This document shows positions 28,118 to 33,494 of a DNA stretch of 64,000 nucleotides, in pieces (position 1 is the first letter of the stretch; every line of letters starts with the position of its first letter). The stretch comes from Actinomycetota bacterium (GTDB lineage: Bacteria > Actinomycetota > Aquicultoria > Subteraquimicrobiales > UBA9087): the NCBI GenBank assembly GCA_030019215.1, contig JASEEZ010000001.1, positions 84,211-148,210 of the forward strand, written 5' to 3'. The notes under the pieces were generated by a model. That model made no database searches, was not told the origin of the DNA, and saw nothing but the letters and a program-made list of their open reading frames with translations. A program made the translations under genes and the position numbers.

Positions 28118-28651
28118 TCAAGAAACCCGTTTCAAAAAGGGCTCGATGTACTGTCTTTGAATAGGGTCGGCGGATTGTCCGAGCAAGACGAGGACGATAT
28201 AGCGGGGCTCGAAGGGGGTAGCTCGGGGATACATCTTAGCCTCGTAGGGAAGTCTATCTCCCTTCTTGTAATTGCAAAGGGAACAGGCGGTGGTAACATT
28301 GTCCCAACTATCCATGCCACCTTTGGAAATCGGCTTGACGTGTTCCCGGCTTAAATGCTCTCCCTTCCTGAACTCGCTCTTGTGACGACCACAATACTGG
28401 CAGGTATAGTGATCGCGGGCAAAGAGTATGGAGTTGGTCACCACCCCACGCAATCTGCGGGGGATCTCTATGTACTTGACGAGCCTTATAACTAGCGGAT
28501 AGGGAAACTCGCATTTCTCCGAGCGAATGCGCCTCTCCACATGCTCCTCGATAACTTCAGCCTTCTCCTTTAAAACTAGAACGACGGCGCGCCTAACGGA
28601 GACAAAAGCTAGAGGCTCCGCGCTAGCATTAAGGATCAATGTCTTTCCCAT
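28118..28651 (-). CDS. HNH endonuclease (McrA-like)
   Basis: LILNAS.EPL, RD.YTCQYCG, EHVKP.SKGG..SWDNVTTAC..CN. Confidence 0.92.
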   Translation of the reverse strand: MGKTLILNASAEPLAFVSVRRAVVLVLKEKAEVIEEHVERRIRSEKCEFPYPLVIRLVKYIEIPRRLRGVVTNSILFARDHYTCQYCGRHKSEFRKGEHLSREHVKPISKGGMDSWDNVTTACSLCNYKKGDRLPYEAKMYPRATPFEPRYIVLVLLGQSADPIQRQYIEPFLKRVS

Positions 28652-29409: not shown

Positions 29410-29937
29410 TCAATAACTGGCGAGTGTCTGTGCGATCATCTCGCCAAACCGTTCGGCGGCTTCCGGACCATTAGCGGTGATAATATTCTCATCCTTCTCG
29501 ACACTATTACCAGTATAGTAAGCGCCACACGAGCCCACTTTCCCCGCCTCCGAGGGCCAGACGGTTACCCTTTTGCCAGCCAAAGCCCCCGCATTGGCCA
29601 GCGTTACCGGAGCAACACAGATCGCCCCCAAAATCTTGTTCTTCTCCATCGCCTGTTGAACAATTGAATGAGCGGTGGGATCGCCCCAAAACTCGGAAGC
29701 TCCCGATCCTCCAATGAAGATGACCGCATCAAAATCGTCCGGGGTCACTTCCTGCAGAAGGACATCTGGTTTTACCTTGAGACCAAACATTCCCGTGGCG
29801 GTTGAAGTCACCGACGAAGCCACGGTTACAGAAGCTCCCTTCCCCGTCAAAATGCTTCGAGGTTTCTGGTACTCCTCATCCCGAAAATTCCTGCTGGCTA
29901 TCACGATCAATACCCGCTTGTCAGATAAATCCACCAT
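29410..29937 (-). CDS. DJ-1/PfpI family protein
   Basis: FRDEE, FDAVIFIGG.G, GAICVAP..LA.AG, IITANGP. Confidence 0.92.
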   Translation of the reverse strand: MVDLSDKRVLIVIASRNFRDEEYQKPRSILTGKGASVTVASSVTSTATGMFGLKVKPDVLLQEVTPDDFDAVIFIGGSGASEFWGDPTAHSIVQQAMEKNKILGAICVAPVTLANAGALAGKRVTVWPSEAGKVGSCGAYYTGNSVEKDENIITANGPEAAERFGEMIAQTLASY

Positions 29938-30187
29938 TGTAACTCACCCCTTCTTATCTTAACTCCATCCCTTCCATGATTCAACTTTAAAAAAATCGCT
30001 ATTTGTAAATTATTTCCTTGATTTCACTGAGAAAGAGGGGTTAAATTAAAGTTGTCCCGAGAAGGAAGGAGAAACTTCGAAAGAAGGCACTTCAACCTAC
30101 TCGGGACATTTCTTTCTTTGGTTCTTCTCCATTTTTAGCGGGTAAACTTTTAATCTTGTTCTTTTCTCAAAAGAGCTACGCATTAAA

Positions 30188-30429
30188 GGGTTCGAGGGGT
30201 CGAGGATTCAAGGATTCGAGTGTTGTATTTTTTAACCCTTCGAATCCCTCAGGGTTACCTTGAGTTTATCGAAAGGTAAGATTTTCACTTGACCCCTTGA
30301 TCCCTGGAATCCCGTATAGGGACGTTGTCCCCACGGGACTTTACGTCCCTGAATCCTAAAGTTCTCTTCGCGCCTTACTACACCGATGGTAGGGTGATTT
30401 CTACCCACTATTTTTGGAGAAGAGCTTTA
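30188..30429. repeat. Octamer-repeat palindromic element plus MITE (copy 2) with two nested insertions
   Basis: Collinear with 8781-8916 apart from extra 41 bp (30236-30276, TAA duplicated) and 36 bp (30313-30348, TCC duplicated). Confidence 0.85.
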
Positions 30430-30446
30430 TTTTTATAGCTTTGGGT

Positions 30447-30474
30447 TCAACCAAATAGCTCAAAATGCCGATAA
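30447..30474 (+). promoter_or_regulatory. sigma28-family promoter
   Basis: TCAA-N16-GCCGATAA. Confidence 0.6.
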
Positions 30475-30643
30475 GATTAATGGAAGGAAATCCGAGAGTT
30501 TTGGCGAAGTAAAAAGTGACCCGAGAATTTGAGCCGACTCCGCCGAGAAGATCTCGGAAAAGTTACCGCAGGCCATTAATCTCGGGTCTTTTTTTGCCGG
30601 CAGTAAATAGCCGCCAGCTATCTGCCATCAGCCATCAGCTAAA

Positions 30644-30720
30644 TGGTGGCGCATGCGGGAGTCGAACCCGCGATCTCCGCCTTGAGAGGGCGGTGTCCTA
30701 GGCCACTAGACGAATGCGCC
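30644..30720 (-). tRNA. tRNA-Glu(CTC)
   Basis: GGCGCAT acceptor stem, CCGCC-CT-CTC-AA-GGCGG, GGTTCGACTCC, CCA. Confidence 0.96.
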
Positions 30721-30752
30721 ACAAAATTTTTGGAACAAAAATTTTGAGTTCT

Positions 30753-31406
30753 CTACTTTTTATTTTCGCCTGAAAGTATCCTTCTTATGGATTCTGCCTT
30801 CTTTCTGCCAACTCCTTCAACGCATTGTAAATCGTCCTCGGAGGCATAGACTACCTTCTCAATGCCGCCAAAATGCGATAGTAAAACTCTAGCGAGTTGA
30901 GGTCCTATTCCGGGAAAGGCCTCTAGAATGTGTACCTGCTGTTCAAGCGTATTCTTTGCCTTTTTCTTGGCGTGTAAGGAAACGTAATGCTTTAGACCCG
31001 ATTGCTCTTGTTTTGCAATTACACGCAGAAAACCTGCAGTATCTGTTGAATCTTTGGTAAAAAGTACGGGAATTCCGCGGACAACTGCAATGAGAGCAAG
31101 TGCGCCTCTAATAGCATCAGGGTGTATCTTTCTTCTACCGTATAGCAAATATCCTTCAATAATAAATAAAGGTTTTTCGTAGCTCTCTTTGAGATCGACA
31201 ATCTGTTTAAATAATCGCTTTTTTATTATAGAGCTCAAAAAATCATCTGCAGTCTTTCTCTCTACAGCGACTCTATCACTCAATATATAATCCCCAACCT
31301 CAAGTTCTTGAACAACCAGGGAAACTCTGCCATTTCTTAAGAGATCAGGGATTCCTGACCGCTCTTCTCCATAATCTGCGTAGATAACAAGCTCTGACTG
31401 GTCCAA
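30753..31406 (-). CDS. XPF/ERCC4 nuclease with C-terminal HhH2 (short archaeal-type)
   Basis: VGDYIL..VAVERKT.DDF, FIIEG, PGIGP and EGVGRKKA HhH; AT-richer than neighbours. Confidence 0.9.
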   Translation of the reverse strand: MDQSELVIYADYGEERSGIPDLLRNGRVSLVVQELEVGDYILSDRVAVERKTADDFLSSIIKKRLFKQIVDLKESYEKPLFIIEGYLLYGRRKIHPDAIRGALALIAVVRGIPVLFTKDSTDTAGFLRVIAKQEQSGLKHYVSLHAKKKAKNTLEQQVHILEAFPGIGPQLARVLLSHFGGIEKVVYASEDDLQCVEGVGRKKAESIRRILSGENKK

Positions 31407-31461
31407 ATAATTCCCTCACAAACTCTAATAAAGTCAAAATTTTTCCTTCGGAAAAATTTTG

Positions 31462-31535
31462 TGGCTGGGGAGGAAGGATTCGAACCCTCGCGCCAGGATC
31501 CAGAGTCCTGTGTCCTACCACTAGACGACTCCCCA
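31462..31535 (-). tRNA. tRNA-Gln(CTG)
   Basis: TGGGGAG acceptor stem, CAGGA-CT-CTG-GA-TCCTG, GGTTCGAATCC, CCA. Confidence 0.96.
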
Positions 31536-31611
31536 CTTAAACCTTGGTCAATCCCCGTCCTCAAAGATGATAACACACAAAAAATCCTGTGGACAAGGAT
31601 AACGTCTGACT

Positions 31612-33084
31612 CTAACCGATCTTGTCCGAAATCAAATTTCGGGCCTTCTTCAGCCTCTGCAGGGTCTGCTCTCTTCCCAGCAATTCAATGGATTCAAACA
31701 GGGGTGGACTAACCGTCTTGCCGGTCACAGCGACTCGAACTGGCTGAAGAGCTTTGGCCGGTTTGAGGGAAAGTTCCTCGCACATCCCCCGCAAGGCCCT
31801 CTCTATCCCGTCCTTCCGAAACCCGGGCAAGCTTGCCAATTTCTCCTCGGCCAGAGCCAAAACCCTTAGCGCCTCGTCGCTCTTCAGAACCCTTTCAACC
31901 GCCTGTGGGTCCAGTTTCACTTCCCCAAAGAGAAAATCAGTAAGAGTCACTACGTCCCCCAAGACCTTCATTCTATCTCGGATTGACACAACCACTCTCT
32001 CCAACCATGACAGCTCCTCCGCATCGGGAAAATCCTTGATCAAACCCGCCTCTCGCAGGAAGGGAACTATCCTTAGCGTCAACTCCTTGAGAGGAATCTG
32101 GCGGATGTAGTGGCCATTCATCCATTCTAACTTCGCCGGGTCCCAGATGGCCGGGCTCCGCGAAACATTGCCAAGGGAAAACTTTTCTATCAGTTCCTCG
32201 CCCGTGAACAGGGTCGTCTTCTCATCGTAGGACCACCCCAAGAGAGCGAGATAATTGAGGATTGCCTCGGGCAGGTAGCCATTCCTGCGATACTCCTCGA
32301 CAGAGGTGGCACCGTGACGCTTACTCAAAGGCTTTCTATCCGGCCCCAGAATCATCGGGAGATGGGCAAAGTCCGGGATGGGAAAACCGAGAGCCTGATA
32401 GAGAAGGATCTGTTTCGGGGTGTTTGGCAGATGATCCTCTCCTCTGATAACGTGTGATATCCTCATCGCATTGTCGTCAACGACCACGGCAAAGTTATAG
32501 GTGGGAAAGCCATCGGCGCGGAGTAGGATGAAATCATCAATCAATCTATTCTCGAACCTCGTCTCGCCCTTAATGAGGTCGTTTGCAACCGTTGTCCCCT
32601 CTCGAGGGCAGGCAAATCGAATTGCCGGTCTGCGCCCCTCCTTCTCAAACTCGTCTCTTTCCCGCGCGGTCAGTTCACGACAACGACCGTCGTATCCGGG
32701 GGTGCGACCCTCCTTCAAAGCAACCCGCCGTCTCGATTTCAACTCATCAGGAGTACAGTAACAACAATAGGTCTTCTTTTGAGCGAGCAAGCGCTGAGCG
32801 GTCTCTTCGTAAAGAGAAAGTCGCTCCGTCTGGCGATAGGGCCCAAAATCCCCTCCCGTCTCAGGGCCCTCGTCCCACTCCAAGCCCAACCAGTGCATGG
32901 AAGAGACGATAGCCTGAATTGCCTCCTCCGTTGAACGGCTGCGATCAGTGTCCTCTATCCTGAGGATGAACGCTCCTCCCTTTTGCCTGGCAAAAAGCCA
33001 GTTGTAAAGTGCAGTCCTGGCTCCTCCAATATGCAGAAAACCAGTGGGACTGGGAGCAAAACGCACCCGCACTCTTTCAGCCAT
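31612..33084 (-). CDS. gltX: Glutamate--tRNA ligase
   Basis: RFAPSPTG.LHIGG, LRIEDTD, HVIRGEDH, LSKRHG. Confidence 0.98.
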   Translation of the reverse strand: MAERVRVRFAPSPTGFLHIGGARTALYNWLFARQKGGAFILRIEDTDRSRSTEEAIQAIVSSMHWLGLEWDEGPETGGDFGPYRQTERLSLYEETAQRLLAQKKTYCCYCTPDELKSRRRVALKEGRTPGYDGRCRELTARERDEFEKEGRRPAIRFACPREGTTVANDLIKGETRFENRLIDDFILLRADGFPTYNFAVVVDDNAMRISHVIRGEDHLPNTPKQILLYQALGFPIPDFAHLPMILGPDRKPLSKRHGATSVEEYRRNGYLPEAILNYLALLGWSYDEKTTLFTGEELIEKFSLGNVSRSPAIWDPAKLEWMNGHYIRQIPLKELTLRIVPFLREAGLIKDFPDAEELSWLERVVVSIRDRMKVLGDVVTLTDFLFGEVKLDPQAVERVLKSDEALRVLALAEEKLASLPGFRKDGIERALRGMCEELSLKPAKALQPVRVAVTGKTVSPPLFESIELLGREQTLQRLKKARNLISDKIG

Positions 33085-33152
33085 AAAACTCCCCCAAAAT
33101 AAAAATGCCCAACCGGGACTTGATGAACCATTGGGTTAGTAGGAGGAAACCT

Positions 33153-33494
33153 TTAAATATCCAGTTCCCTACCGTAGTCGTCGGCCAACCGGCTGATATC
33201 ATCCTCAATGGAATAACCATAGGCAATTTCCAAAACCCTGCCCTTCTTACCGGTTGAGATTATGCGATGAACCTGACCAGCGGGGATGAGAAATTCCTCG
33301 CCCCGCTTGGCATCGTGAATTTCATCCCCTATTTGGACCCTCACTCCATTATCGAGAACAACCCAGGTGTCGGTCCTCAGATTGTGCCAGTGCAAGCTGG
33401 TCTCCTGATTGGGCTCGATGGTAATAAGCTTCACCGTACACACCTTGTTGAGGGCATATACCTTGTAATGCCCCCAAGGTTTGTCCATCCTCAT
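33153..33494 (-). CDS. Cupin (type II mannose-6-phosphate isomerase C-terminal domain-like)
   Basis: KPWG.Y, TSLHWH..R...W, HRI, LEI.YG...EDDI.RL.DDYGR. Confidence 0.85.
   Translation of the reverse strand: MRMDKPWGHYKVYALNKVCTVKLITIEPNQETSLHWHNLRTDTWVVLDNGVRVQIGDEIHDAKRGEEFLIPAGQVHRIISTGKKGRVLEIAYGYSIEDDISRLADDYGRELDI

Follow-up and report, generated by a model that had tools for sequence, protein, structure and literature searches.

The archaeal nucleases that most closely resemble the gene described here are XPF of Aeropyrum pernix (2BGW/2BHN) and the nuclease and HhH2 parts of Pyrococcus furiosus Hef (1J22-1J25, 1X2I). The gene is located in a stretch of 64,000 nucleotides (nt), in the following called the window, from the genome assembly of an Actinomycetota bacterium (GCA_030019215.1, contig JASEEZ010000001.1, positions 84,211 to 148,210, forward strand; G000:C11:84211-148210 in our numbering), where it separates the genes for tRNA-Gln and tRNA-Glu. 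Its product has the same two-domain architecture and length as the archaeal proteins, is colinear with them over residues 8-212 and has kept the catalytic residues. In contrast to archaeal XPF and Hef, it belongs to a bacterial host, hence one without PCNA, has no evident C-terminal clamp-binding motif and lacks a helicase domain. The entry for ERCC4/XPF in a 2012 survey of PD-(D/E)XK nucleases names Archaea and Eukaryota, with no horizontal gene transfer observed (PMC3424549), and the portions of the literature searched contained no characterised bacterial XPF.

In bacteria, similar genes are carried by plasmids and metagenome-assembled genomes (MAGs). All are uncharacterised and encode short proteins of 212-236 amino acids with ERCC4 and (HhH)2 domains. 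Those on plasmids, annotated as 'ERCC4 domain-containing protein', show approximately 39-41% identity; examples are found on Polaromonas sp. JS666 plasmid 1 (WP_011485916.1), on pQBR103 (WP_011922936.1) and on Pseudomonas aeruginosa megaplasmids. A search for literature on such plasmid-borne genes returned none. The MAG genes (L052, L072, P0008) specify proteins with 43-56% identity. Unlike the gene in the window, these plasmid and MAG homologues reside among ordinary or hypothetical genes and are flanked neither by tRNA genes nor by hairpins. Actinomycetota also possess a large family of ERCC4-only nucleases, which has the ERCC4 catalytic domain in common with the gene described here. Its members score 28-74 bits, mostly stem from open reading frames (ORFs) of 200-450 amino acids with other architectures and show no full-length similarity.

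As far as gene arrangement is concerned, thrU-tyrU-glyT-thrT-tufB of Escherichia coli is a mixed tRNA-mRNA transcription unit, and a further point of reference is the tRNA punctuation model for mitochondria. In both, as in the window, coding RNA is bounded by tRNAs, and excision of the latter would set the mRNA ends (mitochondrial model outlined in PMC5474008 and PMC5716156). The differences are that the coding gene is foreign here and that it has a tRNA on both sides, from each of which a stem-loop separates it. The nearest analogue among selfish nucleases is segB, a homing endonuclease gene within the tRNA gene cluster of T4 and thus likewise a nuclease gene amid tRNA genes (PMC2330249). SegB is a site-specific GIY-YIG enzyme with demonstrated homing, whereas the gene in the window belongs to a structure-specific family, is single-copy and has homologues that do not recur at tRNA genes. 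We favour, at slightly better than even confidence, the reading that an intact short-form XPF/Hef-type gene was acquired as a promoterless, compact insert in the tRNA-Gln/tRNA-Glu spacer, where it would be transcribed with the tRNAs and freed by tRNA processing.

A short-form XPF/Hef-type gene of foreign composition

The gene (30753..31406, minus strand) starts with TTG and encodes a protein of 217 amino acids, in which Pfam ERCC4 (PF02732) is matched over residues 11-128 with 112 bits against a cut-off of 24, followed by a C-terminal (HhH)2 domain at residues 161-212 (Pfam HHH_5 38.3 bits, HHH_2 34.1 bits, HHH 35 bits). The best NCBIfam match is the Hef nuclease (NF010337, 247.5 bits, 2.5e-73), and it covers only the nuclease end of that model (positions 569-778 of 781) and none of the helicase part. 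As the second match, crenarchaeal/archaeal Xpf (NF040956), reaches 155.5 bits, the protein is by score nearer to the nuclease part of Hef. Both equivalog cut-offs are missed (610 for Hef, 300 for Xpf), and judged by these scores the protein is a member of the family and an equivalog of neither Hef nor archaeal Xpf. Residues 8-212 align with A. pernix XPF (PDB 2bgw/2bhn) at an E value of 1e-35, and matches were also obtained to the P. furiosus Hef nuclease and HhH2 structures (5.7e-11 for HhH2, 1x2i). Residues G38, D39, E49, R50, K51 and D55, which we take to be the catalytic signature GDXnERKX3D, are invariant in an alignment of 17 sequences. The initial annotation, made from the sequence without database searches, had recognised an XPF nuclease gene with ERCC4 and HhH2 domains, and the Pfam, NCBIfam and structure matches bear this out.

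Variants at 90-91% identity (P0089 and P0090, 215 amino acids), encoded on contigs of 2440 and 1267 nt, are present in other samples, and both have kept an open frame and the catalytic residues. Judged by frame and motif, the gene is intact and specifies a complete, apparently active short-form XPF/Hef-type nuclease. Searches for a connection to defence or phages yielded no PADLOC match for the locus as a defence-system family, only weak matches in PHROGs, only HhH matches to uvrC in a phage collection, and a single distant relative (28% identity) in IMG/VR, which argues against a viral vector. Elsewhere in the genome, a second, weak ERCC4-like match (36.7 bits) occurs at C18 12603-12947 in an ORF of 358 amino acids. 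Similar matches exist in the related genomes G024 and G007, and this ORF looks like a different, vertically kept ERCC4-like family.

The description of the gene as richer in AT than its surroundings also held. With a GC content of 0.413 and 0.349 at third codon positions (GC3), compared with means of 0.514 and 0.573 for the 1387 ORFs of at least 200 amino acids in the genome, it falls into the lowest 4% and the lowest 1.4%, respectively. Along the gene GC stays at about 0.38-0.43, as opposed to about 0.52-0.55 in the neighbouring gltX. No orthologue of the gene was found in any of 40 relatives of the same class. While 18 of the 40 gave a match at E <= 0.001, all of these were weak and partial (best 1.3e-6, 28.5 bits) and located in ORFs of 216-740 amino acids, the top ones measuring about 610-740. 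Taken by composition and distribution, the gene is foreign and was acquired horizontally, and the lack of vertical conservation favours insertion.

In addition, the tRNA genes were inspected in the relatives, gltX orthologues being present in 38 of the 40. Among 29 gltX loci scanned for tRNAs, five have both tRNA genes, with spacers of 260, 3, 3, 23 and 0 nt, while 14 have tRNA-Gln alone and ten have neither. This shows that the pair is adjacent within the order, but not 'normally' so across the class. The contiguity of gltX, tRNA-Gln and tRNA-Glu assumed in the initial annotation is thus correct for the order and too general for the class, whereas its statement that the gene parts the tRNA pair agrees with the five loci. 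In the comparison of spacers that it had proposed, the spacer is 0-260 nt, without an XPF orthologue, where the pair occurs in relatives; an empty site of the same species was not found. Note that in family f3 (L024/L025; G003, G006) the pair, with a 3-nt spacer, lies downstream of gltX on the opposite strand, so that it is inverted relative to gltX within the order.

The locus is not an artefact of assembly. The runs containing it are groundwater metagenomes, and the host is an uncultured actinobacterium with a genome assembly of 1.63 Mb (94% complete). A 3043-nt contig of run X2 covers positions 30683-32400 and with them tRNA-Glu, the XPF gene, tRNA-Gln and gltX, and each hairpin is bridged by short contigs of run X1. 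Both junctions between the gene and the tRNAs are real; the confirming runs may include the sample behind the genome assembly itself. Across runs X1-X3 the XPF gene has three variable sites (R27G, S43S, H140R), two of which alter the protein, and gltX has eight, of which four do so. The similar divergence of the two genes implies that the XPF gene is not newer than the strain split.

Hairpins at the tRNA boundaries

The spacer between the two tRNA genes measures 741 nt and consists of hairpin H1 (27 nt), 688 nt of insert, hairpin H2 (25 nt) and a single T (1 nt). The insert in turn is composed of a 28-nt leader, the 654-nt ORF and a 6-nt trailer (AGAACT). H1 (CAAAATTTTTCC-GAA-GGAAAAATTTTG, 12 bp; 31435..31461, minus strand) begins with the base directly after the encoded CCA of tRNA-Gln(CTG) (31462..31535, minus strand; ARAGORN, Rfam tRNA 60.3 bits). 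H2 (CAAAATTTTTG-TTC-CAAAAATTTTG, 11 bp; 30722..30746, minus strand) ends 1 nt before position +1 of tRNA-Glu(CTC), which also has an encoded CCA (30644..30720, minus strand; ARAGORN, Rfam 66 bits). In the genome, ARAGORN found tRNA-Glu(CTC) as the sole gene of its kind; its sequence is, by eye, identical to that of tRNA-Glu in G003. When the 892-nt precursor is folded, H1 (RNA free energy, dG, -9.8 kcal/mol) has a pair probability of 0.97-0.995 and H2 (-6.2 kcal/mol) of 0.68-0.92. An Rfam search of 29900-31700 for further RNA families gave only the two tRNAs at threshold.

In agreement with the initial annotation, each side of the gene is itself a hairpin, and a perfect 14-bp inverted repeat overlaps the tRNA ends. 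Its left arm (GCCACAAAATTTTT, 30718-30731) comprises one arm of H2, T30721 and the first three bases of tRNA-Glu, and its right arm (AAAAATTTTGTGGC, 31452-31465) one arm of H1 and GCCA, the discriminator and CCA of tRNA-Gln. The arms are perfect complements, and with up to one mismatch the repeat has two matches in the window compared with a mean of 0.04 in shuffles. Four of its 14 positions belong to tRNA ends, namely GCCA of tRNA-Gln on one side and, within TGGC, the GGC of tRNA-Glu on the other; the GGC at the start of tRNA-Glu is the same in relatives. We regard the 14-bp inverted repeat as the side product of two similar palindromes that adjoin tRNA ends.

Both hairpins belong to a type that is native to this lineage and adjoins tRNA ends. 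Hairpins of the type CAAAATTTT also abut two further tRNA genes of the genome, both without any insert. The pattern CAAAATTTTN{3,11}AAAATTTTG has four sites in the genome, and every one of them abuts a tRNA end, on the 3' side for tRNA-Gln and on the 5' side for tRNA-Glu, tRNA-Gly(TCC) and tRNA-Val(TAC); the reversed control of the pattern has zero sites in the genome. The last base of the tRNA-Gly(TCC) hairpin on C1 is position +1 of the tRNA, and the tRNA-Val(TAC) hairpin on C12, nearly identical to H1, ends 1 nt before the tRNA. Of all AT-rich perfect hairpins genome-wide, 4 of 20 are found 5 nt or less from a tRNA end (the actual distance is 0-2 nt), although tRNA flanks make up only about 0.2% of the genome and about 0.04 such hairpins would be expected there. 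Among the 40 relatives, the pattern is absent from 38 and occurs once inside a coding region of G024 and once in G006, where tRNA-Gly(TCC) has the identical 26-nt hairpin. The 55-nt spacer between tRNA-Pro and tRNA-Gly in G006 consists of two AT hairpins, one 3' of the upstream and one 5' of the downstream tRNA. The tRNA-Gly hairpin is nearly the same in G001, which belongs to the same genus, and half kept in G007, whereas G003 has another hairpin at that place. It is the only copy common to genomes beyond the one studied here, since the tRNA-Val(TAC) hairpin was not found upstream of tRNA-Val in G002, G003 and G007. XPF was found neither in G006 (97% complete) nor in G001 (76% complete). The refuting conditions set in the initial annotation therefore gave a mixed outcome. 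The gene lacks vertical conservation, as an insertion would, whereas the hairpins persist irrespective of the gene, and this speaks against an element with ends of its own.

The end of the foreign DNA can be narrowed down in the same way. GAGAAC occurs at equal offset before H2 and before the tRNA-Val(TAC) hairpin (GAGAACtCAAAATTTTT vs GAGAACgCAAAATTTT). In the window, this motif and one further nucleotide (T) are located at 30747..30753 (minus strand) just 5' of H2 and overlap the TAG stop codon by its final base. The common GAGAAC suggests that a native leader module starts at that base, and from this we infer that the foreign DNA ends about at the XPF stop codon.

In the initial annotation, it was suggested that the gene bracketed by the repeats could be a selfish element. 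An element with its own terminal inverted repeats was considered and rejected: the same hairpin is present without insert at tRNA-Gly and tRNA-Val and recurs in G006 and G001, and no integrase or transposase is encoded among the genes neighbouring the locus. The XPF insert is not a hairpin-bounded mobile element. Homologous loci lead to the same result. We compared 160 of them, 80 from genomes and 80 from metagenome contigs, some of which are the same record; 58 encode short forms and 102 long Hef forms. A tRNA lies within 300 nt at one of the 160, a long-form Hef. In the 49 short forms for which both flanks are available, inverted repeats of the flanks do not exceed 9 nt, compared with 14 here, so the question raised in the initial annotation whether homologues share the hairpins is answered in the negative. 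The closest homologue (L138, 56% identity) has a radical-SAM-like ORF on one side and a MazG-like ORF at some distance downstream (names assigned by eye from the translations). Next come L052 and L139 (52-53%), which overlap their neighbours and have a bacterial context. In the two closest homologue loci, the gene is 12 nt from or overlaps its neighbours, which leaves no room for flanking hairpins.

A selfish nuclease of the homing type could in principle have used the hairpins without being bounded by them: the XPF protein would recognise and cut the spacer hairpin or cruciform, its gene would be copied into empty sites, and the two hairpins would represent the duplicated target. A promoterless nuclease gene in a conserved tRNA spacer recalls T4 segB (PMC2330249). 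H1 and H2 share identical 10-nt stems, as expected of a duplicated palindromic target, and four such hairpins occur in this genome as opposed to none or one in each of the 40 relatives. However, the loops differ (CCGAAGG vs GTTCC) in spite of the identical stems, the gene is single-copy, a tRNA is close by at only one of the 160 homologue loci (a long Hef), long flank repeats are missing from all 49 short forms, the closest two homologues sit among ordinary genes, and the same hairpin type stands at tRNA-Gly in the two genomes in which XPF was not found and at tRNA-Val and tRNA-Gly here without insert. Furthermore, ERCC4 nucleases are structure-specific and not sequence-specific, which also counts against homing. 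One observation that could be read as an empty site is a contig of run X4 in which six other letters separate tRNA-Glu from tRNA-Gln. On the short side of the joint the contig comprises 23 letters, its depth is 31.6 compared with 6.4 for the close strain and CCA is not encoded, so that the joint probably stems from another organism. The flanks of the locus are covered in X4 at 99% identity, while no X4 contig lies on 30740-31411; this gap is uninformative, as contigs break at palindromes in other runs too. Taken together, we regard homing as very improbable.

A different role for the 14-bp repeat would be that of a processing stem. In analogy to intervening sequences (IVS) of 23S rRNA, some of which bear ORFs, the two arms would pair in the transcript, loop out the gene and join the tRNA ends, and RNase III would cut the stem. 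The complement is perfect, the duplex has a dG of -15.9 kcal/mol and RNase III is encoded in the genome. In the folded 892-nt precursor, by contrast, the long-range pairing has a probability of 0.002, compared with 0.68-0.995 for the local hairpins, and the stem is thus not dominant. Moreover, three of its 14 pairs could form only if the tRNA-Glu acceptor stem opened, a stem of 14 bp is short for RNase III, and the same hairpins occur singly beside other tRNAs. An excision of this kind appears to us to have the slimmest chance of being correct.

Two further hairpin arrangements at tRNA genes were seen elsewhere in the genome. At C4 4424-4454, a single perfect hairpin (CGTAAAAATGTGGC-TT-GCCACATTTTTACG) fills the entire 31 nt that separate tRNA-Met from tRNA-Val(CAC), extending from CCA to +1. 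The tRNA-Arg/Gly/Pro cluster at C1 27150-28090 contains duplicated 3' halves of tRNA-Gly and tRNA-Pro beside a GC-rich hairpin repeat (CCTGGGGGAAATCCTTCCCCC...), which is also present in tRNA spacers of C12.

Proposed transcription with the tRNAs and release of the mRNA

All parts of the locus from gltX through tRNA-Glu are encoded on one strand. The gene gltX for glutamate--tRNA ligase (31612..33084, minus strand; ORF of 490 amino acids, Pfam tRNA-synt_1c 5e-103 and Anticodon_2) is the upstream neighbour of tRNA-Gln. Between the two, the consensus scan detected a putative promoter (TTGTCC-18 nt-TATCAT with TG before the -10 element; 31567..31596, minus strand), the only promoter-like match on this strand within 30300-33300. 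The leader (31407..31434, minus strand) carries a GAGGG resembling a Shine-Dalgarno (SD) sequence at 31417..31413, 6 nt 5' of the TTG start. About 110 nt past tRNA-Glu, the scan found a terminator-like hairpin followed by a T run (30518..30535, minus strand) within a larger inverted repeat (30511-30526 / 30580-30595), a candidate for the end of the transcription unit.

In the mechanism that we propose, transcription from the promoter-like site upstream of tRNA-Gln would yield one transcript comprising tRNA-Gln, XPF and tRNA-Glu. The mRNA would be freed by 3'-end processing of tRNA-Gln and by cleavage of RNase P at position +1 of tRNA-Glu, and would then carry a stem-loop at both ends. Stem-loops at RNA ends are a known safeguard against 3' exonucleases and against RNases E/G and J, which act in a 5'-end-dependent manner. 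The genome encodes RNase P RNA (297 bits) as well as RNases E/G, J and III. The second possibility raised in the initial annotation, an mRNA cut out of a pre-tRNA by processing, is thus plausible from the layout and the enzymes encoded. By analogy with archaeal short XPFs and with the nuclease domain of Hef, the protein is expected to be a homodimer that cuts branched DNA such as 3' flaps and forks in repair or fork rescue. A native precedent for this layout is the gene for a deaminase of the TadA type (PF14437, 8e-45; C33 22424-22870, L277:725-1171), which is located co-oriented between tRNA-Arg(ACG) and tRNA-Ser(CGA) and thus likewise inside a tRNA cluster. tRNA-Arg(ACG) is the expected substrate of TadA.

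Several points weigh against co-transcription and processing. The putative promoter and terminator are consensus matches that are no commoner than in shuffled sequence. The same scan also flags H1 itself as terminator-like (12 bp with only 3 G-C pairs, broken T run), and if H1 terminates efficiently, XPF and tRNA-Glu need another promoter, of which none was found. A stem directly at the cleavage site of RNase P is of no obvious help to processing. Transcription with the tRNAs and release by processing have been read from the DNA layout, just as enzymatic activity and the homodimeric state have been taken from homology. As for the acquisition of the gene, no empty site of the same species was found; the sole genome of the same genus, G001 (76% complete), does not contain the region, neither gltX nor these tRNAs being assembled, and its only match is to a 316-bp repeat (30115-30430). 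Finally, the deep forks of a second tree, described below, are unresolved, the branch that sets the archaeal labels apart has a support of 68 and the bacterial grouping is weak. With regard to H1, its role as a true terminator was considered and appears unlikely, given its AT stem, its dG and its broken T run and given that the same type of hairpin directly precedes tRNAs.

Alternatively, the XPF gene may have been acquired like any other and be driven by its own promoter, which escaped recognition, in which case the tRNA site would merely be permissive and play no role in expression. Actinobacterial promoters fit the sigma-70 consensus poorly, so that a scan can miss them, the gene has a good SD sequence and start, and insertions are concentrated at tRNA clusters in this genome, as indicated by duplications of tRNA halves with GC-hairpin elements. 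Only 55 nt (H1 and the leader), however, separate the CCA of tRNA-Gln from the start, and they contain no match to -10 or -35 elements. In addition, the stretch between the gene and tRNA-Glu(CTC) contains no promoter-like site, which makes read-through across XPF the simplest way to express it. We consider a separate promoter unlikely but credible.

The gene could also be a neutral or decaying passenger, transcribed or not, whose protein has no function in the host, in line with its non-ameliorated composition, its TTG start and two protein-altering polymorphisms out of three (R27G, H140R). We also know of no partner such as PCNA in bacteria. On the other hand, the ORF is full-length with all catalytic residues intact, the variants at 90-91% identity keep frame and motif, related short XPFs persist on 159 plasmids, and the changes in gltX are of a comparable mixture, with 4 of 8 affecting the protein. 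There is, in our view, little chance that the gene is a mere passenger. It is a real foreign XPF/Hef-type gene in an unusual expression site that is probably driven by the tRNAs. On a broader scale, one may speculate that paired AT hairpins that insulate neighbouring tRNAs offer promoterless foreign genes a place to land and be expressed in this lineage, although we rate this generalisation as quite doubtful.

The remaining neighbourhood is of the housekeeping kind (acylphosphatase, HNH protein, DJ-1/PfpI, gltX, cupin, ribH, ribBA). The HNH protein is a stand-alone endonuclease of 177 amino acids (PF01844, 1.6e-12) encoded at 28118-28651 on the minus strand, 2 kb from the locus. Directly 3' of tRNA-Glu, heptamer-type repeats (TAGCTGA TGGCTGA TGGCAGA ...) extend over 30600-30643, and an X3 contig is without 7 bases at 30624. 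The 316-bp repeat just downstream of tRNA-Glu is multi-copy, with 14 partial copies in G001. Contigs of X1, X2 and X4 skip exactly 30115-30430, with one letter in between, which reveals a presence/absence polymorphism. The repeat is probably an element resembling a miniature inverted-repeat transposable element (MITE).

Donor and distribution of short XPF/Hef-type genes

In a tree of 92 rows, the protein groups with P0002, the Bacillota MAG protein P0008 and a clade that includes rows titled 'bacterium' or 'uncultured bacterium' (SH-aLRT, the Shimodaira-Hasegawa-like approximate likelihood ratio test, 93, not starred). On the other side are 83 rows, and all labelled ones are archaeal except for one titled Bacteroidetes, which is nested among Methanosarcinales and probably misbinned. 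For the second tree, with 71 rows, five plasmid proteins and two actinobacterial short forms were added and 28 near-duplicate archaeal rows removed; all archaeal-labelled rows still fit on one side of a branch. PF02732 matches were obtained in 49 of 401 Actinomycetota genomes, this one included (G057 and G178 were used only in this count). Most of them are of other architecture, and the short combination of ERCC4 and HhH2 was present only in G331 (36% identity) and G248 (34%).

Of 72,556 plasmid records, 159 contain homologues; 136 of these records are from Pseudomonas, and the plasmids are mostly large. At least 80% of the query is covered in 154 of the 159, and identity is about 39-41% among the matches listed (for example NC_007949.1 172373-173026 and NC_009444.1 136603-137304). 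Given that short XPFs labelled bacterial are its closest kin and that genes of this kind are found on 159 bacterial plasmids, the donor was likely bacterial; on this sequence evidence a bacterial genome or plasmid is a more likely source than an archaeon. No homologue is close enough to name the donor. In the trees, the protein falls outside every archaeal clade that was sampled. The archaeal type assigned in the initial annotation holds for the family, XPF/Hef, but the donor was more probably bacterial.

Were this no more than a repair nuclease gene acquired in the ordinary way, the locus would be a modest point of annotation. Beyond this, it adds to the evidence that short XPF/Hef-type nucleases circulate among bacteria, as indicated by the plasmid records and several MAG homologues labelled bacterial. 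It also offers a natural test case of about 1.1 kb for two questions, namely whether a foreign mRNA can be made available through tRNA processing in a bacterium and what conserved hairpins at tRNA boundaries do. Should the hairpins indeed constitute a landing site, the lineage would possess a bacterial counterpart of mitochondrial tRNA punctuation that domesticates acquired genes such as XPF: a gene placed between a 3'-trailer and a 5'-leader hairpin would be co-transcribed with them, be cut out by tRNA processing and have both of its ends protected by stem-loops.

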